Shown here one piece after another: positions 6,642 through 64,000 of a stretch of DNA of 64,000 nt. The stretch spans positions 33,677 through 97,676 of the forward strand of contig MGHM01000020.1 in NCBI GenBank assembly GCA_001793235.1, in the 5' to 3' direction. Both the position numbers and the translations under genes were made by a program. Within the stretch, counting starts at the first letter, position 1. Every line of letters begins with the position of its first letter. Origin of the DNA: Candidatus Woesebacteria bacterium RIFCSPLOWO2_01_FULL_44_24b (GTDB lineage Bacteria > Patescibacteriota > Microgenomatia > UBA8517). The notes below the pieces were generated by a model that worked only from the letters and a program-made list of their open reading frames with translations, searched no databases and had not been told where the DNA came from.

Positions 6642-6826
6642 ATTTTAAGGTCCAAGCTTTGTATTTTACACTTTGAATAACTGGAAGAAAAGATTTTGTC
6701 ATTATACGAAATCAAACGTCATTGGACCAATTCGCACCAGTAAGCTTAACGACTTGCGTCGCTTCCACTGCTGGCCGATTAAACCGATGTTCTCTCGGAG
6801 GTCTCATAACGAACCCTCATCTTAGG

Positions 6827-6863
<37 letters not shown>

Positions 6864-7096
6864 ATGGGAATGTAGCTACCCGGCGCTGCCACTGATGTGA
6901 CAACCGGCACACTAGGGATTCCCCCATCCCGGTCCTCTCGTACTGGGGACAGCTCCCTTCAAGGTTCAACGCACACACCGGATAGAGTCCGAGCTGTCTT
7001 GCGACGCTCTGAACCCAGCTCACGTAGCACTTTAACGGGCGAACAGACCGACCCTTGGGAGGTACTTCCCCCCCAGGATGTGCTGAGCCGACATCG

Positions 7097-7938
7097 CTTT
7101 AAACCCATCTACTTACGTAGTGGCCTGACTATACCTTCGTCCTCTACAACATGAAGTAGGACGCCGACGTGTTATATGAATTAAAAAATTCATATCTACT
7201 CCCTTACGAGCTAGTCGATACGGGGTTATATCGGAATTTTGTACCGCATACTTTTAATTATGTGCGGGTAGATTGTTTCCCTGAGTGTTGGAGTACTTGA
7301 GTATAAGGTTCGTATTCTAAAGTACGTTTTATCCTTATTTAATCGTGACTCTATTCCAAGTTCTCCCAAACTTTTTATTAAATTACCTTGACTCTTTAAA
7401 TCAAATTGTTGGCAATTAAAATAACTGCTTCTATATGTTTTTGAACCATCGTCCATATACCAGACAGCTAAAGATAGTGGGGATAACTTTAAATTATCCG
7501 GAATTATCTTTTTGCCATTCAGGTAAAATCTGCCATAGAAAACAGTAAGTTCGGGAATGCTTTTGATAAAGAATCTGTAACCAACACGGCCTGCATTGCC
7601 TCGATAAGCTTTGGGAGGAGTGATGACAATATCTTTTAAAATTTGATATTTCCAATCAACGTACTCTTTTTGCTTTATAAGCGAAGCTTGTGAACTTCGT
7701 TCATCGAATGCGTAATTTGCAAATGCGCATTAGTTTTCTTTCTCAAATATCCATCACCAAGGATGCAACCCAAAATTATTTGTTGTTGAATATCCGATAA
7801 ACTTCCCACGGTGTTGTCCCCTGAATTCAGCTTAACCCAAAGTTAAACCGAATTTCAAGTTGGAGTTCACCGTTATGAGTCGGTATTTTTAAAACAGCAT
7901 TCCGGTATTTCTACCGGAAGACCCCGATGTCATTGTTG
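7097..7938 (-). mobile_element. Group I intron in 23S rRNA at an E. coli ~L2500-equivalent site
   Basis: The exon junction is reconstructed as '...GTTCGCTACCT | intron | CGATGTCGGCTCAGCACATCCTGGGG...'. The 5' exon ends in U and the intron ends in G, as expected for group I; the ~842-nt insert carries a LAGLIDADG ORF. Confidence 0.7.
7226..7830 (-). pseudogene. Intron-encoded LAGLIDADG homing endonuclease, disrupted by a frameshift
   Basis: Frame A from GTG gives 'VGSLSDIQQQIILGCILGDGYLRKKTNAHLQITHSMNEVHKLRL*', which is the first LAGLIDADG motif. A +1 frame then continues '...KQKEYVDWKYQILKD...LAVWYMDDGSKTYRSS...KIPI*', carrying the second motif. The ORF track lists only the 76-aa 3' fragment (7226-7456). 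Confidence 0.6.
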
Positions 7939-9294
7939 AGGTAGCGAACCGCATCGTCGATATGGACTCTCGGATGCGACTACTCTGTTATCCCCGGCGT
8001 AGCTTTTATCTATTAAGCTCCGTCCGCACCCATTGCGAAACGGAGGATCACTAAGACCTACTTTCGTACCTGCTTGGCCCATCGGCCTCGCAGTCAAGCT
8101 GGCTTATACCTTTGCGCTTACCCCACGATTTCCATCCGTGGTTAGCCAACCTTTGCGTCCCTGCGTTACCTTTTTGCAGGGTACCGCCCCAGTAAAACTG
8201 CCCATCTGACACTTTTCCCGGACGCGTTTCAAGCGTCCCTGAGTAAGATCTGCCACATTTTAAAGAGAGGTGTTACATTGGCGTCCCGCAAAGCGGGACT
8301 CCCTCTTACGCTAGACAATTAAAATGCACAGCTCAATGCCAGAATACAGTAAAGCTGCACGGGGTCTTTTTGTCCTGGTGTGTGTAGGCCGCGTCTTCAC
8401 AGCCATCGCAATTTCGCCGAGTGATAGTTTAAGACAGTTGTCAGCTCGTTACGCCTTTCGTGCGGGTCTGAACTTACCAGACAAGGAACTTCGCTACCGT
8501 AGAACAGTTATAGTTACTGCTGCCGTTTACTGGAGCTTCATTTCAGAGCATCCCGCCAAAGGCGGGGCACCCATCCACTTAACTTACCAGCACTGGGCAG
8601 GCGTCAGCCCGTATACTTAAGCTTTCGCTTTTGCACGGACCTGTGTTTTTGGTAAACAGTCGACTGACAATCGTTAGCTGCGATCCCTACACCATAAATG
8701 GTGAGGGACAGGACATCTTGCGAACTTACGTCCAGCTAATTTGCCGAGTTCCTTAAACTACCTTCTCTCGCTCGCCTTGGTCTACTCGACCAACCCACCT
8801 GTGTCGGTTTGCGGTACGGCTCGCTTTGATACTCACTGCGAATTTTTTCTTGTAAACTGAAACGGTCAGAATTGGCGAACTCTCGCTCACCTCTGCATCG
8901 CCGCTTAATTAATCATCTTGATGGGTTTTCCAATCAAGACTATCTCACGGCTTACACTCCAATCAATAAGAAGCTCTGACGCTCCAATTCAGTCAATCCC
9001 CAGTTGCATGCAGTCCCTTGCGGGTGCAAACGCATCAAAACAAGTACGGGAATATTAACCCGTTATCCATCGACTACGCCCTTAGGCCTCGCCTTAGGTG
9101 CCGACTTACTCCCGGAGGACGAACCTCGCCGGGAAAACCTTGGGTTTTCGGCGTCCCGAATTCTCATCGGGATTTCACGCTACTCATACCGGCATTCTCA
9201 CTTCCAAGCGCTCCACCATGGTTTCCACCACAGCTTCACTGCACTTGGAACGCTCCCCTACCACCTCGCTCGCAGAGCGAGAAATTCTAAATTT

Positions 9295-9425
9295 AAAATT
9301 TGAAATTTTTAATCAAATAAAAATACTAAAATCTAAACTTCAAAAATTAGAAATTAGATATTAAAAATTGATTTAAAATTAAAAACTAAAAACTAAAAAT
9401 TCTCGTTCTACGAACGAGATCCGTA
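9295..9425 (-). other. AT-rich expansion of ~130 nt inside 23S rRNA at the helix-45 position
   Basis: Between the conserved flanks 'GGGCTAAAGTATACTACCGAAGCTACGG' and 'GGTAGGGGAGCGTTCC' (reverse-complement sense), the normal ~25-nt helix is replaced by '...aaaatactaaaatctaaacttcaaaaattagaaattagatattaaaaattgatttaaaattaaaaactaaaaactaaaaat...'. Bases 9382-9410 of the tail are a noisy ~7-nt period rather than a clean tandem repeat. Confidence 0.5.
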
Positions 9426-9502
9426 GCTTCGGTAGTATACTTTAGCCCCGCGAAATCTTAGGCGCGGAATCCCTTGACCAGTGAGCTGTTACGCTATCTT
9501 TA

Positions 9503-9537
<35 letters not shown>

Positions 9538-10923
9538 TTTTGGAATTCCACTTCCTTAAACACTGAGTATACATTTTGGGACCTTAACTGACGGTCTGGG
9601 TTGTTTCCCTTTCGTCTCTAGAGCTTAGCCCCTAGAGACTGTCTAGTCCGTTAATGTGATTGTAATTCGGAGTTTGATTAAATCGCCTTGGTTTCCCTTG
9701 GCGACCCATTCAGTAGCTCTACCTCCAATCCACCTAGCGGACCACGGTGCCCATACACCTTTCGGGGAGAACCAGCTATCTCCAGGCTCGTTTGGCATTT
9801 TACCCCTAGCCACAAGTCATCCGAGCATATTGCAACATACAACGGTTCGGCCCTCCTTCCCGCTTTCGCGGGAATTCAGCCTGCTCATGGCTAGATCGCC
9901 TGGTTTCGGGTCTATCATGCACTACTAATTGCACTATTAGTACTCGCTTTCGCTGCGCTTTTGAGCCATAAGCCCTTAAGCTTGCAGTACACGATAACTC
10001 GCCGGTTCATTCTTCAATAGGCACGAGATCACTCGCGCTCTGCGCGAAAGTTACGAAGTGATTAAGTTAATAAGTTATTAAGTTTTGTTTTACTTAATCT
10101 CTTAATCGCTTAATGTCTTCATATCTTTTGTGCAAAGCACAAGCTCTCTCGGTTTGTCTGCAAACAGTTTCATGTTCTATTTCACTGTGCGTTCCGCACT
10201 TCTTTTCACCTTTCCCTCTCGGTACTTGTTCACTATCGGTCCTTTGTTATATTTAGCCTTGGAGGATGGTCCCCCCAGATTCCCACAGATTGTGACCGTG
10301 GTACTCAGGTGCCCACTAGGCTGATAATTAGTTTTGCTTACGCGAGTTTCACGCTCTTTGCTCATCCATTCCAGAATGTTCTGCTACCAATTATCAATGC
10401 CATATCGTGAGTCCTACAACCGATCACCCCATTAGATAAAAATATCTAACGGGGCAAAATTTGGGCTGTTGCCGTTTCGCTCGCCGCTACTTAGGCAATC
10501 TCGTTGATTTCTCTTCCTCACCCTACTTAGATGTTTCAGTTCGGATGGTTCCCTCGCCTGCAGCTATATTCCGGTAAACCGGAAATTTTACCACAGTGTG
10601 GCCCAGGATGAACTGGGCCAGGTTTCCCCATTCGGACACCGCCGGATCAAAGCTTCGTGGCAGCTCCCCGACGACTTTCGCGGCCATGTACGTCCTTCAT
10701 AGGTAACAAAGGCCAAGGTATCCACTGTTTGCATTTTTTAGACGCTTGATTCCGTACAATCCCGCTGAGCGGGACGGACACAACTCCCTCGAGTTGTATA
10801 CGGAATCGCCTTTTCTTCCAGTTGTCAAAGTACAAAATATTAGAGTTAAAGAGTAAAAGAGTAAAAGGTAAAAGTTTGGTCTTTCACTCTCTTGCTCTCT
10901 CGCTCTTTCACTCTAAGTGGGTG

Positions 10924-14299: not shown

Positions 14300-14420
14300 G
14301 TCACACAGAGGTTAGGAATGAAGTAGCAAGTAGAATGTAGAAAGTAGTATGGGAATTTTGTATCTCCCTTGCTACATGCTTCATGCTACATACTACATGT
14401 TTCCTAGCTTCTCTGTGACT
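14300..14420. repeat. ORF-less inverted-repeat copy of the heptamer-repeat IVS-cassette ends, with an extra outer inverted repeat
   Basis: Left arm 14321-14357 'aagtagcaagtagaatgtagaaagtagtatgggaatt' and right arm 14371-14400 'gctacatgcttcatgctacatactacatg' are inverted copies of the inverted repeats flanking 57583-57951. An outer imperfect inverted repeat flanks them ('tcacacagag', 14301-14310; 'ctctgtgact', 14411-14420). Confidence 0.5.
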
Positions 14421-20964: not shown

Positions 20965-22060
20965 GGTTATTCATTGTATACCAATTAATTCCACCTTGTC
21001 ATTCCCGCGAAAGCGGGAATCCACACTAATAATCTGGTCTGGTTACAATAGATTCCGGATCAAGTCCGGAATGACAATGAAGTTTCTCTTGGCAGCCTGA
21101 CAGCGATTGAAATATGGAACCCTACGACCCCATCACCATTTCAAGTGACTAAATTAGTTTTCACTTCAAATTAAAGTCTTGCTAATTTAATAACCAGAAA
21201 TGGTGAGGGGAAGAGTTCGGTTTATTTTCCCCAAAACCGTGACTTTAAAGGGGGGTGTTAATCCCGTGAGATAGTCTTGCGACATCTAACAGGACGTGTG
21301 TTTATTCACACTCCTTAGAAAGGAGGTGATCCATCCGCTCCTTCCAGAACGGATACCTTGTTACGACTTAAGCCTTATCGCTAGTTTCACCTTCTTCCGA
21401 TCACTCGGAATTCGGGTGCCCCTAACTTTACTGCCTTGACGGGCGGTGTGTACAAGACCTGAGAACGTATTCACCGGGATTTAGCTGACTCCCGATTACT
21501 ACCAATTCCGCGTTCATGAGGGCGAATTGCAGCCCTCAATCCCCACTGAGACATCGTTTATGGGATTAGCTCCGCCTTACGGCTTGGCAACCCATTGTCG
21601 ATGCCATTGTATTATGTGTGTAGCCCTGGACATAAGGGCCATGCTGACCTGACGTCGTCCCCACTTCCTTCTGATACAAAGATCAAAAAGTCTCCTATGA
21701 TTATTCAACATAGGACAGGGGTTGCGCTCGTTACCCCACTTAAGGGAACACCCCACGGCACGAGCTGACGACGGCCATGCAACACCTGTGCTATCATCCC
21801 AAATAAATTTAGGATCATCCCAATTTTCATCAGAACTAAAACGATAGCATGTCAAGTCCAGGTAAGGTTCTTCGGTTTGTCTCGAATTAAACCACATAAT
21901 CCACTGGTTGTGCAGGTCCCCGTCAATTCCTTTGAGTTTTAAACTTGCGTTCGTACTCCCCAGGCGGTCCGCTTCACGCGTTAGCTTACGCCCCTCTCCC
22001 GCTAAGCGGGAGAAAAAAGCTAGCGGACATAGTTTACGGCTAGGACTACAGGGGTCTCTA

Positions 22061-22928
22061 CTATATTGTTACATTCTCTAATTAATAGAGAAGATCTTGT
22101 CATTTCTGCAAGATTCTACATATTACTATGCAGCTCGGACTATATCATAACCCGTCCCGTTAGATAATTTATCTAATGGGATTGGGTCCCGACATGTAGT
22201 CTCTACGGGGTCTGTATTCTCGCTGAATAAGGAAGAAATTTATATTTAAATTCCGGTAAAATGAATTTGAAAACTTGTTTTCGAAGTTTACTCAAACTTT
22301 GTTTAGGAAAATAAATTATATCTCTACCCTTATTTTTGTGAGTTAAAGTTTCAATCTCAAAATTAGTGAGTATTGCTTCTTGCAACCTTTGTACATCTTT
22401 CGCAGTAAATGAATGAGTTTGGATGGACAGTCCAGCGTATTCTGCCGAACCATCATCCATAATCCATACTGCAAAAGAAAGTGGATTGCTTAGCAATACA
22501 TTTATGTTTGCAGGCACAATCTTTTTAAAAGACGGGTAAAATAAGTCATAATATGCAGTAAATTCTGGATGGGTATGAGTGACGAATTCGGCAAATTTAT
22601 AATCTTTTTTACCAACTCGCTGCTCAAAAACATTAACATCCATTGAAATAAAATTTGCAAATACAAAATATTTATATAAAACTAATGGAAGTTGATTTCT
22701 CGAGTGCTTAATATGCAATCGAGCATTCTTTCCATGAAGTTTTATTGCTCCATCTCCTAAAAGTGTCCCTACCAACACAGCCTTTTGAGTTTCACTTAAA
22801 CAGACTTCCCTCGGTATTGTCCTCATAATTTCAGTATACTAAAGATATACCGAAATAGTAGGATATTCACCGATACAGTCAGTTTTTCTCACTGCTAATT
22901 ACTTAGCAGGGGGACTAGAGTTTTACTC
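22061..22928 (-). mobile_element. Group I intron in 16S rRNA at the E. coli position ~788 site
   Basis: Exon 1 ends '...GGGAGCGAAAGGGAT' (E. coli '...GGGGAGCAAACAGGAT'), and exon 2 resumes 'TAGAGACCCCTGTAGTCC' (E. coli 'TAGATACCCTGGTAGTCC'). The 5' exon ends in U and the intron ends in G; the ~868-nt insert contains an intact LAGLIDADG ORF. Confidence 0.7.
22203..22826 (-). CDS. LAGLIDADG homing endonuclease (intron-encoded, intact)
   Basis: 207-aa protein with both LAGLIDADG motifs ('AVLVGTLLGDGAI' and 'SFAVWIMDDGSA'), lying entirely within the 16S intron. Confidence 0.8.
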   Translation of the reverse strand: MRTIPREVCLSETQKAVLVGTLLGDGAIKLHGKNARLHIKHSRNQLPLVLYKYFVFANFISMDVNVFEQRVGKKDYKFAEFVTHTHPEFTAYYDLFYPSFKKIVPANINVLLSNPLSFAVWIMDDGSAEYAGLSIQTHSFTAKDVQRLQEAILTNFEIETLTHKNKGRDIIYFPKQSLSKLRKQVFKFILPEFKYKFLPYSARIQTP

Positions 22929-23842
22929 CATCCCTTTCGCTCCCCTAGCTGTCGTTCCTCAGCGTCAAGATTTGCTTAGTCACCCGCCTTCGCCTTCGGA
23001 GTTCCTGTCGATATCAACGGATTTCACCCCTACACCGACAGTTCCAGTGACCCCAACATTCTTCAAGCACGTAAGTATCGCGTCCCTTTCCCCAGTTAAG
23101 CTGGGGTCTTTGAAACGCGACTTTACGTGCCGCCTACGAAACACTTTACGCCCAATAAATCCGGGCAACGCTTACACCCTTCGTATTACCGCTGCTGCTG
23201 GCACGAAGTTAGCCGGTGCTTATTCTACCCCGCCTTTCAGAGGGGTCAAAAGAAGTTTACAACCCGAAGGCCTTCATCCTTCACGCGGCGTCACGGCATC
23301 AGACTTGCGTCCATTGTGCACGATTCCCTGTTGCTGCCACCCGTAGGTGTATAGGCCGTGTCTCAGTCCTATTCTGGGGGTACGCGCTCTCACGCCCCCT
23401 AACCGTCGTAGTCTTGGTAAGCCATTACCTCACCAACAAACTGATGGTGCGCAGGTTCCTCCATCGGCGGGCAGTTAAGCCCTTTGCCCTTGCGGGATTA
23501 TGCGGTATTACCCCACCTTTCGGTGGACTATTCCACACCAATGGGTAGATCCCTACGTGTTACTCAGCCGTTCGCAACTGTTCCGGCAAGCCGGAACCGT
23601 TCTACTTGCATGCATAAAGTACGCCGCCAGCGTTTACCCTGGGCCAGGATCAAACCCTCAATTAAGTGGATTTATATTAAAATCCTGGGACCAATTCCAA
23701 TCGCTGTCAGACTGTCAAAGAGCTTTAGCTCGAAGACCCCTTCGTAGTTCCGGTAAAACCGGAACGAAGTGGGGTCAAAGTTCTAAAGTAATCTTGAAGT
23801 TATTAACCCCGCCTTGTTCGGCTGGCAAGTTAACTTGATTAG

Positions 23843-30846: not shown

Positions 30847-30921
30847 TGGTGAGCCCGGGAGGGCTCGAACCTCCAACCATCACCTTAAAAGGGTGTTGCT
30901 CTACCATTGAGCTACGGGCCC
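30847..30921 (-). tRNA. tRNA-Lys (anticodon UUU)
   Basis: Reverse complement 'GGGCCCGTAGCTCAATGGTAGAGCAACACCCTTTTAAGGTGATGGTTGGAGGTTCGAGCCCTCCCGGGCTCACCA' has anticodon loop 'CTTTTAA' and an encoded CCA. Confidence 0.85.
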
Positions 30922-31011
30922 AGGAAACTCCAATATTATACCTTTTGGCTAAGGAAACTTCAAAATAAATATATCCTTGCCTTTTCGGACCAAGAATATA
31001 TACTAAAAGTA

Positions 31012-31710
31012 ATGATTAATAAAAGTTCAGTAAGAGATCGGAACAAAGAATTTTTCAAAGCTTGTATCGAGCTGAGGAAACAAGGTCTCAGTTACAGCGA
31101 GATTCGTGCTCAAGTGCCAGTCGCAAAGTCAACTCTCCAAAATTGGCTGACTTTAGCAGGCCTGACTCTTACAAAAGAACATCTCGAAATACAGTTACGA
31201 AAAAGGGTAGAAAGCAGAAGTGCAGCAACTGAAGCCTCGAGGCTTACAAGAGCTCAAAATACAGAAGATGAAATTAACAAAATGATTCAAGAGACTCGGA
31301 AATTCTTTGGTGATCCCCTCTTTATCACAGGAACTATCTTATATGAGGCAGAGGGTAGCAAGTCAGGTCAGTGCAAATTTTCCAATTCAGACTCTAGATT
31401 AATAAAAACCTTCCTCTTGTTTCTTGAGAAATTTTTCAAGGTAGATAAAACAAAAAACATAGGATTTTCTCTTTTTGTTCATATCACCAGGAAATATGAT
31501 CTAAATAGGATCAAGTCTTTCTGGGCTCAAGAATTACTTGTCCCAGTGGAAAATGTAAAAGTTTATTGGAAGAAAAATGAAGTTGTTAATAGAAGGAAAA
31601 ATCTTGATTATGTGGGACAAATGCTTGTTAGTGTAAGGGGAATACGCACTTTTAGTAGAAAACTACTGGCGATTTCGGATATAATACTCAGGCCATATTA
31701 TAGAAGTTAA
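31012..31710 (+). CDS. Helix-turn-helix protein with a possible degenerate LAGLIDADG-like C-terminal domain (free-standing endonuclease-like), located in a tRNA cluster
   Basis: N-terminal helix-turn-helix 'LRKQGLSYSEIRAQVPVAKSTLQNWL'; the central 'LFITGTILYEAEGSKSGQCKFSNSDSRLIKTFLLFLEKF' resembles a single LAGLIDADG motif. The ORF-track 5' end (30907) overlaps tRNA-Lys, so the ATG at 31012 is preferred. The assignment is weak. Confidence 0.4.
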   Translation: MINKSSVRDRNKEFFKACIELRKQGLSYSEIRAQVPVAKSTLQNWLTLAGLTLTKEHLEIQLRKRVESRSAATEASRLTRAQNTEDEINKMIQETRKFFGDPLFITGTILYEAEGSKSGQCKFSNSDSRLIKTFLLFLEKFFKVDKTKNIGFSLFVHITRKYDLNRIKSFWAQELLVPVENVKVYWKKNEVVNRRKNLDYVGQMLVSVRGIRTFSRKLLAISDIILRPYYRS

Positions 31711-31922: not shown

Positions 31923-32459
31923 ATGTATATGGTCAAACATGGGTCAAAGCACTTGAGGCATAACACCCCTACCCAGGAAGAGCTAAAGGAGATCAAAAGA
32001 AACCCGATTTATCTGGTTTTAGATAATGTACTTGATACATATAATATCGGTTCGCTTTTCAGGCTCGCGGACGCCATAGCGGCCGAAAAGTTATATATTT
32101 GCGGAGACTCCGAATATCCGCCATCGTCAAGAATCCACAAATCTGCCGTCGGCACCGAAGAATGGGTGCCTTGGGCGAAAGCAGACAAAGCAATTGAGGT
32201 TATTAAGAGATTAAGAGATAAAGGAGTACGGATAATCTCGGTTGAACAAAATCCCCAAGCTACCAGCTACAAACTACTAACTCCCAATTTTCCTTGTGCC
32301 ATTGTTGTGGGCCACGAAACCAAAGGTGTTTCAAAAGAGGTTTTAAAGCTCTCCGACATTATTGTTGAGCTCCCAATGTACGGCGTCAATAAATCATTTA
32401 ATGTATGGGGATCAGCAGCTGTGATTGCCTACAAAATACTCGAAACTTTAGGAAGATAG
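31923..32459 (+). CDS. SpoU/TrmH-family RNA 2'-O-methyltransferase
   Basis: 'IYLVLDNVLDTYNIGSLFRLADAIAAEKLYI' and the C-terminal knot motifs 'VELPMYGVNKSFNVWGSAAVIAY' of SPOUT methyltransferases. Confidence 0.8.
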   Translation: MYMVKHGSKHLRHNTPTQEELKEIKRNPIYLVLDNVLDTYNIGSLFRLADAIAAEKLYICGDSEYPPSSRIHKSAVGTEEWVPWAKADKAIEVIKRLRDKGVRIISVEQNPQATSYKLLTPNFPCAIVVGHETKGVSKEVLKLSDIIVELPMYGVNKSFNVWGSAAVIAYKILETLGR

Positions 32460-45115: not shown

Positions 45116-45421
45116 CTATCGCCTGCGCTCCTCTTGTGTGTCCGCTTTCTGGGCTTTCAGCTGAGAAAGCTTCCACATAAATAGTTTTCCTTTGGAGCGG
45201 ACACCCGGGGCATCACTTACAAAACTGCGAGCAGCCTCTAGGAACCCTCTTGGAGTAGTCTTGGCAAGCTTTATATAAAGCGACTTGTTTTTTTCATCTC
45301 CAAGCTCAACCGCTAAGTCATAGCCATACTTTTGAAATTCACGGCTAATAAATTTATCTTTATCAAAATTTTTTAGCCCGGAGGGCCAAGCTTTGCTTAT
45401 AATGTCGCCAATTTTTTGCAT
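45116..45421 (-). CDS. Hypothetical basic protein
   Basis: 101-aa ORF whose 5' end overlaps the pth 3' end. Confidence 0.35.
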   Translation of the reverse strand: MQKIGDIISKAWPSGLKNFDKDKFISREFQKYGYDLAVELGDEKNKSLYIKLAKTTPRGFLEAARSFVSDAPGVRSKGKLFMWKLSQLKAQKADTQEERRR

Positions 45422-45912
45422 GTTTCATCCAAAACTTTATCTAATATCTCCTTTTCCTCAGATGTAAAATCTTGTAGCACATACTGCTCTCCTGGAGTTC
45501 GATTGTTTGAATCACGATTATCAACTCCAACCCGCACCCGCCAGAAGTCATCGGTTCCAAGAGCCTTCTCGATAGAATTTATACCCTTGTGAACCTTGGG
45601 GCCCTTGCCTTTTTGAATTTTATACTCGCCAAGTTTGATGTCTAAGTCATCGTGAACGATATATAAATCAGTAGAAAGTAGCATGTAGTATGTAGCAAGG
45701 GATTTCACAGACCCCCCGGAATTGTTCATCATAGTTAAAGGCTTTGAAAGAATTAGCTTATCTTTCTGTGCAATTTCCGAGTGGAGCTTTTTGGAAATTG
45801 AAAATTGTAAATTGTAAATTGCTGCCAGCTTGTCTAGCAAAATAAAGCCCACGTTATGCCTTGTGTTTTTATATTTATCACCAACATTACCAAGCCCGAC
45901 TACTACCTTCAT
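45397..45912 (-). CDS. pth: Peptidyl-tRNA hydrolase
   Basis: 'VVGLGNVGDKYKNTRHNVGF...MNNSGGSV...IVHDDLDIKLGEYKIQKGKGPKVHKGINSI' are Pth motifs. It contains an in-frame copy of the heptamer repeat at 45670-45705. Confidence 0.85.
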   Translation of the reverse strand: MKVVVGLGNVGDKYKNTRHNVGFILLDKLAAIYNLQFSISKKLHSEIAQKDKLILSKPLTMMNNSGGSVKSLATYYMLLSTDLYIVHDDLDIKLGEYKIQKGKGPKVHKGINSIEKALGTDDFWRVRVGVDNRDSNNRTPGEQYVLQDFTSEEKEILDKVLDETCKKLATL

Positions 45913-55609: not shown

Positions 55610-56461
55610 TTAAATTTTTTGGCAATGCGGGCAGTAGTAAGTCCCTCGGCCACCTAAGGCGATCTTTTTGAATCTATCTTTTTTGCATCTTGTACACAAA
55701 GCACCTTGCTTGCCATAGGCCAGAAAGTACTTTTGATAACTCCCTTCGCCACCGTCCGGAGTAACAAACGCAAGCTCGCTTGCTCCCCCGGCCTCTATTC
55801 CCTTTTTCAAAACTTTTTCTATAGATTTAAAAAGCTGAGTTTGTTCACTTAAACTTAAGCTGTTCGCGGCTCTTCCGGGGTGGACTTTAGCATCCCACAA
55901 GGCATCATTGGCATAAATATTTCCAACTCCCCCCATTTTGCTCTGGTCCATTAAAACCACTTTCACCTGCCTTTTTGTTTTCCCCAAAATTTCTTTGAAA
56001 GTTTTCAAGTCCAGCTTGCCAAAAGGTTCCGGGCCCAATTTTTTAATAAAGCCAAACTCTTCTACATCTTTGGTTTTGGTTAGCTTTATCCAGCCAAAAC
56101 GGCGGATGTCGTTGTAATACAAAAAACCTTTATTGTCTAATTTAAAAATTACATGAGTGTGCCCGCCTGGAACTCCACCGGAAACTTTCTTGGACAAAGC
56201 CGGGTGTTTTACAAGTTTTGGCCCTCTGTAAATAAACTGGCCGGTTAGCTTTATATGAGTTACCGTGGAGTATCCATTATCAAAATCAAAAACCAAAACC
56301 TTGCCGAACCTTCTAATGCTTTTGAATTTTGCGCCAACTATTGGCGTAAAGTCATCAGGTGCAACTTTTTTGTTTTTGACTTCAACATCCATTACTTCAT
56401 GGCCAACGACAAATTTTTCAAGTTGATTTCTAATTGCTTGGACTTCAGGAAGTTCCGGCAT
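55610..56461 (-). CDS. mutM: Formamidopyrimidine-DNA glycosylase (Fpg/MutM)
   Basis: N-terminal 'MPELPEV', a helix-two-turn-helix region and a C-terminal zinc finger 'CTRCKKD...CPHC'. Confidence 0.85.
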   Translation of the reverse strand: MPELPEVQAIRNQLEKFVVGHEVMDVEVKNKKVAPDDFTPIVGAKFKSIRRFGKVLVFDFDNGYSTVTHIKLTGQFIYRGPKLVKHPALSKKVSGGVPGGHTHVIFKLDNKGFLYYNDIRRFGWIKLTKTKDVEEFGFIKKLGPEPFGKLDLKTFKEILGKTKRQVKVVLMDQSKMGGVGNIYANDALWDAKVHPGRAANSLSLSEQTQLFKSIEKVLKKGIEAGGASELAFVTPDGGEGSYQKYFLAYGKQGALCTRCKKDRFKKIALGGRGTYYCPHCQKI

Positions 56462-57545
56462 ATTTTTGTATTATACTCCTAACTTCATTCTCAAATCTCT
56501 CTTTGCTAAATTTCTTTGCGTGATTCCTGATAACATCTTTATTCCACTTTATCTTTTCTGACTTCTTAATGGCCTTAGCAATTGCCTCAGTGGTTAATTC
56601 ATTGAAGAATAAACCAGTCTTTCCTTCCACCACGCTTTCCAAATAGCCTTCTGCACGAAACGCAATAGTTGGCGTTCCGTAACTTGCGGCTTCCAAGGGA
56701 GTCATGCCAAAGTCCTCATCTTTCTGGGCAACTATGAAAGCATTTGCATTTGTGTACAAATTGGCTAACTCATCATCTGAAACTCGCCCAAGGAACTCAA
56801 CTTTATTACTCGCAATTTTTCTTAAGTTTTTTTCTTCAACCCCTGAGCCAAAAATCTTCAATTTAACATCAGCTTTTTTACAAGCTTTGATAATTAAATC
56901 AAAATTTTTAGTCCTCACCATTCTGCCGCCGGTTAAATAATGTGTAGAATGTAGCATGTAGGATGTAGCATGGGGAGATTCAATAGGCGGATACACAACA
57001 GCGTAATCCTTGCGCCTGTAAAACTTCTCAATTCGCCTGCCAACATTTTTAGAGTTTGCAATAAAATATGTCACTTTTTGAGCCTGAGTAAAGTCATACA
57101 TTCTCATAAAGTGATTGACGACCAAAGCGTAAATTTTGACAGCACCGGCAAACCACAAACTTTGCCAGTCGCGTGAAGTGTCATATCCCCACAAATATCT
57201 TGGCGGCGTATGAAGGTAACAAATCTCTTTTTTAGCGCCCTTCATGCCCTTGGTTACAGCCCAAGAGGCGCTTGTTATCACTAAATCATATTTTGAAAAG
57301 TTGAAACTATTCCAAACCAAGGGAACCAAAAACCGCAAAGGAGAAATAAGTTTATCTGCAAAAGGCAAATACGAAAACCAAGACTGAATTATTTTTTTAT
57401 CTTTAAATTCTTTCCCACATGGAGAGTCTTTTTTAAAATAAATTGTATAAATTGGAGCCTTGGGATAAATCTCAGAAAGCGCCAAAAGCACTCTCTCCGC
57501 TCCCCCAAATTCGTTTAGATAATCGTGTACCAGTGCAATTCGCAT
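56445..57545 (-). CDS. Family 4 glycosyltransferase
   Basis: 'MRIALVHDYLNEFGGAERVL' (GT4 N-terminus) and 'EDFGMTPLEAASYGTPTIA' (E-x7-E). The start is taken at 57545; the ORF-track start at 57563 reads into the heptamer repeat. An in-frame heptamer repeat copy lies at 56941-56976. Confidence 0.8.
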   Translation of the reverse strand: MRIALVHDYLNEFGGAERVLLALSEIYPKAPIYTIYFKKDSPCGKEFKDKKIIQSWFSYLPFADKLISPLRFLVPLVWNSFNFSKYDLVITSASWAVTKGMKGAKKEICYLHTPPRYLWGYDTSRDWQSLWFAGAVKIYALVVNHFMRMYDFTQAQKVTYFIANSKNVGRRIEKFYRRKDYAVVYPPIESPHATSYMLHSTHYLTGGRMVRTKNFDLIIKACKKADVKLKIFGSGVEEKNLRKIASNKVEFLGRVSDDELANLYTNANAFIVAQKDEDFGMTPLEAASYGTPTIAFRAEGYLESVVEGKTGLFFNELTTEAIAKAIKKSEKIKWNKDVIRNHAKKFSKERFENEVRSIIQKYAGTS

Positions 57546-57584
57546 ACATGTAGAATGTAGCATGTAGAACGTAGAATGGGAATT
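57546..57584. repeat. Left terminal inverted repeat of the IVS-like cassette (heptamer 'NATGTAG' units ending 'ATGGGAATT')
   Basis: 'acatgtagaatgtagcatgtagaacgtagaatgggaatt' abuts the stop codon of the four-helix-bundle ORF at one end and the GT4 start codon at the other. Confidence 0.6.
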
Positions 57585-57951
57585 ATTCCTTGTTCCGAAT
57601 GCTTTTAATCAAACCCGTTAATAACTTGTGAACTGTTACTGTTAATTCTGCGGTCTCTTCAAACTTATCTTTCTTCAAATAACCCAAATCTTTAGAAATA
57701 AGAAGCTGGTTTTGAAGCTCGGACAATGAACCTTGAGCCATGTAATAAAATTGCATCTTTTCCTGTTTGCCTCTTCTTCCAAAGCCTTCTGCAATATTGC
57801 TTGTTATCGAAACAGCAGCTCGTTGCATTTGATTCGTTAAAGAAAACCTCTCTTTTTCGGGAAACTGATTGGTAATTTTGTATATTATCAGGACCAGCTT
57901 ATGTCCTTCCCTCCACGCATTTAGCTCTGTAAATTTGGTGATTGTCCCCAT
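57583..57951 (-). CDS. Four-helix-bundle protein of the '23S rRNA intervening-sequence protein' / DGR Avd family
   Basis: 'TELNAWREGHKLVLIIYKITNQFPEKERFSLTNQMQRAAVSITSNIAEGFGR...FYYMAQGSLSELQNQLLISKDLGYL' matches the conserved pattern of the IVS-protein family (TIGR02436 / PF05635-like). Confidence 0.75.
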   Translation of the reverse strand: MGTITKFTELNAWREGHKLVLIIYKITNQFPEKERFSLTNQMQRAAVSITSNIAEGFGRRGKQEKMQFYYMAQGSLSELQNQLLISKDLGYLKKDKFEETAELTVTVHKLLTGLIKSIRNKE

Positions 57952-57990
57952 GCTACATACTACTTTCTACTTGCTACATCAGAGCAGACT
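57952..57990. repeat. Right terminal inverted repeat of the IVS-like cassette
   Basis: 'gctacatactactttctacttgctacatcagagcagac' is the reverse complement of the left arm pattern ('gatgtagcaagtagaaagtagtatgtagcATGGGGAca'). It starts 1 nt after the ORF start codon and overlaps the last codons of the exonuclease gene. Confidence 0.6.
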
Positions 57991-63283: not shown

Positions 63284-63498
63284 TAGGCTATGTTAGCTTA
63301 AATTGAAGTAAATTGGAAGTTAAAATTTGTTGCCTCACGCTGCCTGAGTGCCCGACTCGAACGGGACGCCAAGTCGTAAGTGTTTAGGGTAGCTAATCCG
63401 ATATTCCTCTCACGACGTATCGGGTAATACTCGATTGCTAACCGTACCCACAAAGGGACCGACCCTTTGCCAATCCTCAGGCAGAGAAAGGCAACAAG

Positions 63499-63571
63499 TA
63501 CCAGCGACAGGGATCGAACCTGTGACCCGCGGTTTATGATTCCGCTGCTCTACCAACTGAGCTACGCTGGC
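63499..63571 (-). tRNA. tRNA with CAU anticodon (elongator Met, or Ile2 if lysidinylated)
   Basis: Reverse complement 'GCCAGCGTAGCTCAGTTGGTAGAGCAGCGGAATCATAAACCGCGGGTCACAGGTTCGATCCCTGTCGCTGGTA' resembles E. coli tRNA-Met(m); anticodon loop 'ATCATAA'. Confidence 0.75.
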
Positions 63572-63639: not shown

Positions 63640-64000
63640 ATGTCTAACAGCTATTTTTACATGCGGGGTAGTGTACGGCTGCACGGAAGGCTCAAAATGG
63701 GCCCGTCTAGTAGCAATATTAGAATGAGAACTTGGCTATATCGGCGAAACCTAAATTATTAAACATGGCAACGCCGAGGAAAGGCCCCACTTAGCGGGGA
63801 ATCCGTAGAGACTATACGCCGAGCCCCATTAGATGAGAAATCTATCTAACGGGGATGACATAGTCCGACACTCACCGAAAGATGAGGTAACAGAAAAGCA
63901 TAATCTTCCAGACCGGGTCCGACTCCCGGCCCCGCAACAAGGCACAATTCTGCGCCTTGCTTCGGAGGGTACAGTACTGTACCCTCCTTCGCCAGGAGCT
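63640..64000. ncRNA. Candidate structured non-coding RNA (identity unresolved; RNase P RNA or similar possible), truncated by the window end
   Basis: 360 nt with no ORF of 60 aa or more on any frame; dense hairpins ('ccccacttagcgggg', 'ccccattagatgagaaatctatctaacgggg', 'ccgggtccgactcccgg') and a perfect 24-nt palindrome 'ggagggtacagtactgtaccctcc'; contains 'GAGGAAAGGCCCC' and 'GGTAACAGAAAAGC', which loosely resemble RNase P conserved regions I and V. Confidence 0.3.

Follow-up and report, generated by a model that had tools for sequence, protein, structure and literature searches.

A four-heptamer repeat module forms the arms of an IVS-like cassette and lies in frame within conserved protein genes of a Candidatus Woesebacteria genome

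The subject of this analysis is a short, GTAG-rich repeat that lies inside the peptidyl-tRNA hydrolase gene, pth, of Candidatus Woesebacteria bacterium RIFCSPLOWO2_01_FULL_44_24b. We examined it in a 64,000-nucleotide (nt) stretch of contig MGHM01000020.1, hereinafter the window, whose own positions are used throughout. The same repeat forms the arms of an intergenic hairpin and of a cassette resembling the intervening sequences (IVSs) of 23S rRNA genes, and it recurs as single copies within the genes for a GT4 glycosyltransferase and a SpoU/TrmH-family methyltransferase. The genes and features concerned are the following (ORF, open reading frame; aa, amino acids).

45397..45912, minus strand: pth, peptidyl-tRNA hydrolase, 171 aa (PF01195, 8.5e-51)
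45671..45704, plus strand: pth arm, GTAGAAA GTAGCAT GTAGTAT GTAGCAA GGGATT; solitary, four heptamers
56445..57545, minus strand: GT4 glycosyltransferase gene (PF00534)
56944..56977, plus strand: GT4 arm, GTAGAAT GTAGCAT GTAGGAT GTAGCAT GGGGAG; solitary, in the inter-domain linker
31923..32459, plus strand: gene for a SpoU/TrmH-family methyltransferase, in which the third arm lies
32251..32284, minus strand: SpoU arm, GGAGTTA GTAGTTT GTAGCTG GTAGCTT GGGGAT; solitary, more degenerate
14323..14396: intergenic, ORF-less hairpin with inverted arms at 14323-14356 (plus) and 14363-14396 (minus), centre GGGAATTTTGTATCTCCC
57550..57977, minus strand: IVS-like cassette, 5' arm 57944-57977 (minus), inverted 3' arm 57550-57583 (plus)
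57583-57951, minus strand: 23S_rRNA_IVP / four-helix-bundle (S23p) gene, here the IVP gene, 122 aa (PF05635, 8.6e-37; TIGR02436, 2.5e-35)

The arm family comprises seven copies in the window, all of them made of four units, (GTAGNNN)x4, followed by W-GGG-R (WGGGR). A period-7 scan for GTAG recovered the seven arms at 15 to 16 of the 16 GTAG positions (16/16 for the pth and GT4 copies, 15/16 for the SpoU copy), whereas each of 20 shuffles gave 0 to 2 hits at the lower cutoff of 13/16. With up to three mismatches allowed, the query GTAGCATGTAGNATGTAGCA produced 13 overlapping matches at six of the seven arm sites versus 0.00 expected (100 shuffles). In-gene and element arms match each other at 26 to 29 of 34 positions, the element arms among themselves at 24 to 29 of 34, and the differences between arms fall at unit positions 5 to 7 and involve all bases. 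The likeness includes the inner junction: that of the pth arm, GTAGCAAGGGA (AAGGGA), is the junction of hairpin arm 14363-14396, that of the GT4 arm, GTAGCATGGGGA (ATGGGGA), is the junction with the ATG-GGG start of the IVP gene, and the SpoU arm reads TTGGGGA. The pth and GT4 sequences are true members of the cassette-arm repeat, inner junction included. An assembly artefact is ruled out because independent contigs from another sample (P0022/L004 and P0129) carry identical sequences.

The original prediction, made from the letters alone, had placed a single arm at 45670-45705 (cAGTAGAAAGTAGCATGTAGTATGTAGCAAGGGATT) in frame within pth and a 22/27-identical copy at 56941-56976 (atgtGTAGAATGTAGCATGTAGGATGTAGCATGGGG) within the GT4 gene. 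The pth arm does lie in frame within the gene identified by the PF01195 match, where its antisense reading in codons 71 to 82 is SLATYYMLLSTD, and it encodes the repeat peptide. The GT4 copy is likewise real, but the figure becomes 28 of 32 identical bases when the two are aligned from the first GTAG. Positions 56941-56976 encode SPHATSYMLHSTH; the arm as delimited here encodes SPHATSYMLHST and contains the IVP start-codon junction. That unrelated proteins share the repeat in frame and without disruption was borne out, and it extends to a third, newly found in-gene copy, the SpoU arm, with the peptide NPQATSYKLLTPN.

The window scan found no inverted partner arm near the pth or SpoU copies, and for the GT4 copy the nearest inverted arm is the 5' arm of the cassette, 972 nt away. 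A degenerate partner adjoining the pth copy was also sought by eye and discarded, the flanking codons being those of the conserved P.TxMNxSG motif. Local mRNA folds predict the in-gene arrays to be unpaired. The ORF-less hairpin is predicted to fold as RNA at -30 to -31 kcal/mol (z = -3.0 and -4.8), and the cassette arms pair in the minimum-free-energy RNA fold, the complementarity of paired arms being only partial at the N positions.

The cassette lies between a 5'-3' exonuclease gene and the GT4 gene, and the inner end of its 5' arm, ATGGG, provides the start codon and the following Gly codon of the IVP gene. The mechanically called start of the GT4 ORF (MLHSTCM..., 57545-57563) reaches into the 3' arm, but homolog alignment indicates that the true start is likely the ATG at 57545 (MRIALVHDY), so that the 3' arm would directly abut the start codon. 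In the syntenic relatives L005 and L007, the exonuclease-GT4 junction has no cassette. In L143, L155, L165, and L188, it holds IVP cassettes whose four-heptamer arms are built from other units (GATTTAA, ANGNATT, AGTATCN, and GCTNTAT, differing by genome), the 5' arm ending at the IVP start in ...TATGG in L143, L155, and L188 and in ...TTTATGAA in L165. Many Microgenomates have an IVP cassette or a bare heptamer array upstream of GT4, which makes this junction a recurrent site; in L173, L177, L179, L181, and L193, it is occupied just upstream of the gene.

IVSs with an S23p ORF occur in Leptospira and other bacteria as well as in Coxiella, and to our knowledge these S23p/IVS elements have been without a known function for decades. 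In Coxiella burnetii, the terminal inverted repeats of the 23S rRNA IVS form a stem of ~28 bp, RNase III cuts the element out, and three GACAGAT heptamers plus a degenerate one directly precede the start of the PF05635/four-helix-bundle ORF, the number of heptamers differing between strains (PMC4990558). The cassette at 57550-57977 has the same build (stem, heptamers, start codon, S23p ORF) but lies between protein genes, whereas Coxiella-type IVSs occupy rRNA helix 45 or 25. An IVS-type stem around a PF05635 ORF is found only at the cassette and not at the solitary in-gene arms, and a single arm inside coding sequence is not described for IVS elements.

Hairpins of comparable design are also seen in the rRNA genes. 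The 23S gene (6711-10748) is ~1.1 kb longer than the Rfam model, and its hairpins, especially those at 9289-9401 and 10048-10127, are inverted tandem arrays of 7- to 8-nt units (AAATTTA/AAAAATT, AAGTTATT/CTTAATCT). A similar hairpin, AGAGTAAA/CTCTCTCG, occupies 10842-10914 in the spacer between the 23S 5' end and tRNA-Ala. These 23S and spacer hairpins are ORF-less, IVS-like stems with the architecture of the arms. The 16S gene (21319-23665) measures 2347 nt versus 1533 nt for its model and therefore contains insertions; the rRNA operon is unlinked, since ~10 kb of protein-coding genes separate 16S from 23S.

The pth and GT4 copies were predicted to share orientation and frame, and both statements hold, but neither is very informative. 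Because the GTAG strand places TAG in all frames within three units and thus stops every frame, only the CTAC orientation is normally readable, and the common orientation is forced. As 7 and 3 are coprime, all frames yield one 7-residue cycle, T-x-Y-x-L-x-x, and a common frame adds little. The three in-gene copies also share their phase relative to the GGG end (chance, ~1/9). The same phase predominates among in-frame metagenomic copies in genes judged real by eye (ValRS, CarB, UvrA, and MurG). Of the 28 long antisense ORFs that surround metagenomic arms, many are probably spurious products of GC-rich DNA; phase 1 dominates among the examples listed, in which the real genes were again picked out by eye on the basis of their translations. 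Stops have been repaired in some relatives, with TGG in place of an in-frame TGA in L005 and GAAG in place of GTAG in the sense-oriented array of L188.

Protein alignments do not support the proposal that the arm was a tolerated in-frame insertion. At the pth arm, no gap was seen in the 35 Pth homologs that were aligned, in the 120 that were listed, or in two solved structures (3nea and 2z2i). The arm peptide, located at the end of helix alpha3 and in the following loop, aligns residue by residue with L-A-x-F/Y-Y-x-(I/L/V)-x-x-x-D/E, universal in Pth; L-A-x-F/Y-Y-x-(I/L/V) is also present in the solved Pth structures from Francisella and Mycobacterium, and 'LAT(F/Y)YKL' occurs in many Microgenomates Pth proteins. 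The SpoU site is similarly gapless in the homolog alignment, where the closest homolog reads SANSVSYSNLKPN, and the GT4 linker is hypervariable, spanning ~12 to 31 residues in homologs, with the window copy at the minimum length. The gapless alignments led us to reject insertion for pth and SpoU, and because the module adds no residues, "in-frame insertion" is the wrong description for all three window copies. Rather than being extra DNA, the in-gene module encodes a protein segment that is either compatible with it or under little constraint. The other option in that prediction, selection for a shared binding site in coding DNA, is possible.

The same alignments bear on whether the in-gene arms are recent footprints, left when a hairpin or cassette entered the gene in frame and only one arm stayed behind. 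Length-adding, in-frame, hairpin-like inserts do exist at pth site 1 (P0004, P0006, P0039, and L211), in the GT4 linker (L008/P0124 and P0133), and upstream of the SpoU site (P0242, P0243, and P0350), and CarB and UvrA genes in GC-rich metagenome contigs contain long inserts with arrays. However, the three window sites have no added residues, which largely refutes a footprint for pth and SpoU. Each such event would also require a deletion of exactly matching size, 28 to 34 nt being no multiple of 3. Moreover, the presence of the pth array in six other lineages (see below) shows that it is old. We consider a footprint very unlikely.

Other repeats lie close to the in-gene arms. A second, unrelated heptamer array in pth, TTGTAAA x4.4 at 45791..45821 (plus strand), reads AATTTAC on the coding strand and encodes IYNLQFSIS. 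It falls in an indel-prone region: the AATTTAC array is conserved in L001, while in other relatives this point is occupied by longer hairpin-like inserts that keep the frame, or the segment is missing altogether. In the SpoU gene, an 8-nt tandem array, ATTAAGAG x2.8, occupies 32202-32223, ~30 nt upstream of the CTAC array, and at this point SpoU homologs carry palindrome-like inserts of 10 to 80 residues.

Given the encoded peptides, the codon usage makes the full CCC + 4xCTAC pattern improbable in both pth (P = 1.1e-5) and GT4 (P = 5.8e-5). A CTAC array lies at the same pth codons in six further Microgenomates (L210, L211, L212, L213, L214, and L150) at 53 to 66% aa identity. The shared pattern is xCT ACx xxC TAC xxx CTA Cxx xCT ACx, of which L213 retains three of the four units. 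The Leu codon CTA, with a usage of 5.8% in the window, appears in six of the seven pth orthologs with a CTAC array. Totals for L210 to L213, the four orthologs that have the L-A-T version, show identical residues encoded by identical codons in 23/30 cases inside the array, versus a proportion of ~0.37 outside. In L150, the array is (ACTACCG)x3 and the conserved aromatic residue is replaced by Asp. The array DNA is conserved beyond the need of the protein, in a way that neither codon usage nor protein conservation explains.

The original prediction had named ancestral residues with divergent DNA as the mark of a codon-level coincidence. Ancestry of the residues L-A-x-F/Y-Y-x-L in Pth is borne out, but their DNA has not diverged. 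That the peptide is simply ancestral, and the DNA likeness a by-product of codon choice, agrees with the universality of the Pth motif. It is at odds with the codon-usage probabilities just given, with the presence of three in-gene copies in 64 kb where a back-of-envelope estimate gives ~0.002 expected at a score of at least 15/16, and with in-gene junctions identical to those of the element arms. Pure coincidence was rejected on the codon probabilities and the shared junctions, and we lend protein-level convergence next to no credence.

Arrays persist at the pth site even where their unit changes. Heptamer arrays of at least six different units occupy this site in 11 of 22 orthologs and include, all with no change in length, ATCACCG x4.7 (L001), ATTGAAA x4 (L005), AATGCCA x4.7 (L180), CTATTCG (L170), and GTACTAA/GTACTCT (L188). 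GT4 linker arrays are present in 8 of 30 genomes, with AAATACT, AATTCAA, AAATTTT, AAATATC, or CAGCTAC as the unit; that of L005 lies in the same register as the window array and has TAC in common with it. The exonuclease gene, Fpg, and the GT4 5' junction are further recurrent array sites, their positions being approximate as derived from ORF offsets. Units of one array (paralogous) and corresponding units of different genomes (orthologous) both exceed the cross-comparison control in similarity.

A survey of 1.32 Mb from 80 Microgenomates genomes placed these arrays in a broader context. Four-unit arrays numbered 50 at period 7, compared with 5 each at periods 6 and 8 and none in shuffles. Of the 101 period-7 arrays, 69 fall within ORFs of 100 aa or longer, and an inverted partner occurs within 1.5 kb of only 13; copy number has its mode at 3.5 to 4.5 units and dips at 3.0. 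Units are shared at 6/7 positions or more by 19.8% of array pairs from the same genome versus 6.4% of pairs from different genomes. Four-unit period-7 arrays are a general feature of the clade, located mostly in genes and at recurrent sites. The simpler notion of one repeat family per genome was discarded, as the pth and GT4 arrays of L005 differ and the IVP arms of L143, L155, L165, and L188 differ from the in-gene arrays.

Scanning metagenomes for (GTAGNNN)x4 GGG returned at least 120 loci of widely differing GC content. In-frame modules were found in CarB (L053), UvrA (L055), ValRS (L040), UvrB (L097 and L099), and MurG (L092), partly in GC-rich lineages, and some of them lie in long inserts made of several different heptamer arrays. 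Among the matches listed, paired arms enclose either 0 to 130 nt or ~366 to 430 nt with one IVP gene, and no other recurring cargo was seen between them.

In bacteria, heptameric tandem repeats are reported to be in excess and to favor four units, a finding left unexplained (PMC4692102; see also PMC2700814). Dispersed four-unit heptamers include GGGAATC in Xanthomonas and GGGGA(C/T)T in Nostoc (PMC4692102), and the "H4" elements of Geobacter metallireducens, GGACCGG x4, lie within and between genes (PMC2700814). These families have tens to hundreds of dispersed copies, and their function is not known. The arrays described here share with them the 7-nt unit, the four-copy mode, and dispersion. 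The Xanthomonas, Nostoc, and Geobacter units are, however, G-rich and proposed to form G-quadruplexes, which CTAC/GTAG units cannot do because they have no G-tracts. Those repeats are also mainly intergenic, whereas three of the seven window copies, like the majority of the surveyed arrays (69/101), are within ORFs. Recurrent orthologous sites and synonymous-site conservation further distinguish the Microgenomates arrays.

Other small repeats resemble the module in part. Repetitive extragenic palindromes (REPs) have a single GTAG head and a cognate Y1 transposase (RAYT); the window arms have four tandem GTAG units, and no transposase family matched among the 46 window ORFs scanned. Rickettsia palindromic elements (RPEs) are small in-frame elements in protein genes. 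Like MITEs (miniature transposable elements with inverted repeats), they are small nonautonomous repeats tolerated in permissive surface segments of conserved genes with the frame intact, and in this the window copies are similar. RPEs and MITEs are nevertheless palindromic, 100 to 150 bp long, and add residues, while the window copies are 28 to 34 nt, half a palindrome, and add none: relative to orthologs, pth and SpoU have gained no residues, the GT4 linker is at its minimum, and each site has a single arm instead of both terminal inverted repeats. Coxiella is reported to have MITEs in protein genes (PMC5896051).

In diversity-generating retroelements (DGRs), a template repeat replaces a variable repeat with the help of the accessory protein Avd (PMC10053308). 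The equal-length overwriting of a short target-gene segment from a template copy is reminiscent of the situation in the window. Matches that stay below the family cutoffs (bAvd-like, 1.1e-9; DivGenRetAVD, 2e-8) make the protein of the cassette a relative of Avd. The DGR segment spans at least 100 nt compared with ~30 nt here. No reverse transcriptase (RVT family) match was found among the 46 window ORFs scanned; on this basis, and because the differences between copies are not adenine specific, DGR-like overwriting was rejected.

Omega-type repressors bind contiguous arrays of 7-bp heptads, direct or inverted. The four heptads could by analogy be operator-like sites, both inter- and intragenic, for a repeat-reading protein such as an omega-type ribbon-helix-helix protein or the pentameric IVP protein. 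This binding mode and the strict preference for four units speak for such a site, as does the proposal that the four-unit elements of Geobacter are global regulatory sites (PMC2700814). Against it, the many units per genome, and even per gene (L180 and L005), would need many cognate proteins, most arrays lie deep in coding regions and not in promoters, and no candidate binder was identified. Protein recognition is in our view distinctly unlikely to account for the arrays.

A regulatory role at the RNA level deserves more weight. In the mRNAs of pth, GT4, and SpoU, the CUAC arrays might serve as targets of complementary GUAG arm RNAs from the hairpin and the cassette, whose 5' arm is on the GT4 transcript strand. 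The resulting duplex of ~28 bp would serve RNase III as a substrate or block translation, coupling the genes to the cassette, and unit sequences would co-evolve between partner and target. Synonymous-site conservation in the pth array across lineages and unit sharing within genomes speak for such a network, as does the concerted unit switch in L150, which overrides a conserved residue. The predicted accessibility of the unpaired in-gene arrays, versus strong pairing of the hairpin and cassette arms, fits as well, and a module of ~four units equals the 28-bp stem cut by RNase III in the Coxiella IVS (PMC4990558). Yet most in-gene arrays of Microgenomates have no complementary partner within 1.5 kb (13/101 arrays have one), the local IVP arms are unlike the in-gene arrays, the orientation bias is already accounted for by stop codons, and arm pairs are only partly complementary at the N positions. 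We therefore regard RNA targeting as possible but doubtful.

Overall, these facts point to a DNA-level process that would impose the arrays, followed by selection at the protein level. The reading we favor, with a probability of roughly 0.45, is that a dispersed four-heptamer module is copied and homogenized by short-patch, slipped-register gene conversion and that stop-free, structurally tolerated outcomes are then selected. The module consists of ~28 to 31 nt, (GTAGNNN)x4 plus a short G-rich junction, and inverted pairs of it form 28-bp stems in IVS-type hairpins, which are empty or have one S23p/IVP gene. Arrays would be copied between sites, and homogenized within themselves, by repeat-driven short-patch gene conversion or slipped-register repair, which would swap sequence at constant length. 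Selection on the host protein would act as a filter: arrays persist only in the CTAC orientation, which is free of stops, or after mutation has removed the in-frame stops, and the module is kept only where the protein can accommodate the 7-residue cycle x-T-x-Y-x-L-x. As 7 and 3 are coprime, a position that is synonymous in one unit is nonsynonymous in the next, and homogenization together with protein selection could freeze synonymous sites without any nucleic-acid function. Such freezing would underlie both the conservation of the pth CTAC DNA across lineages and the concerted switches of array units elsewhere. We infer that the arrays are maintained by conversion and homogenization and not by selection acting directly on the nucleic acid.

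Several observations weigh against gene conversion. No conversion event was directly observed, and the best relatives, at 66 to 81% aa identity, are too distant to provide a before-and-after state. The strictness of the ~four-unit size and the GTAG core found across phyla would fit more naturally with a recognition machinery or a structural length. In L143, L155, L165, and L188, there is no match between the in-gene arrays and the local IVP cassette arms, and the two arrays of L005, in pth and GT4, are unlike each other. At variable positions, same-position units across genomes agree at 1.31/3 and units within an array at 1.19/3; homogenization is therefore not overwhelming.

Two further features of the window are mentioned for completeness. 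A match to the Rfam group I intron lies at 63683-63887 (plus strand; 67 bits, above the gathering threshold), outside the rRNA genes and adjoining tRNA-Met (63498-63571, minus strand). Beside tRNA-Lys, a 267-aa ORF (30907-31710) has no Pfam match at E <= 1e-5; by eye, it resembles a LAGLIDADG-type homing endonuclease and is a candidate for one.

The window links the unexplained heptamer excess of bacteria with the S23p/IVS elements, one module serving as IVS stem and lying in frame in essential genes. The literature searched contained nothing direct on heptamer repeats tied to four-helix-bundle proteins or to the candidate phyla radiation (CPR). Nor did it describe essential genes with single in-frame modules at conserved positions, hot spots at which orthologs keep an array while its unit changes by genome, array DNA conserved across lineages beyond protein need, or the ~28-nt size mode inside genes. 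Under a more far-reaching and, as we see it, unlikely interpretation, the in-gene modules would be functional addresses, belonging either to a network of GUAG-arm RNAs and CUAC mRNAs or to a dedicated templated system that writes ~28-nt modules. If true, the RNA version would amount to a lineage-specific, co-evolving post-transcriptional network over pth, the SpoU methylase, GT4, ValRS, UvrA/B, and MurG, and either version would explain the four-unit rule, synonymous conservation, concerted switching, and the bacterial heptamer excess. Helix alpha3 of Pth and the GT4 linker offer concrete loci at which to ask whether such arrays are selfish, mutational, or regulatory. For annotation, the implication is that repeat-derived peptides in CPR proteins may be under constraint at the nucleic-acid level.

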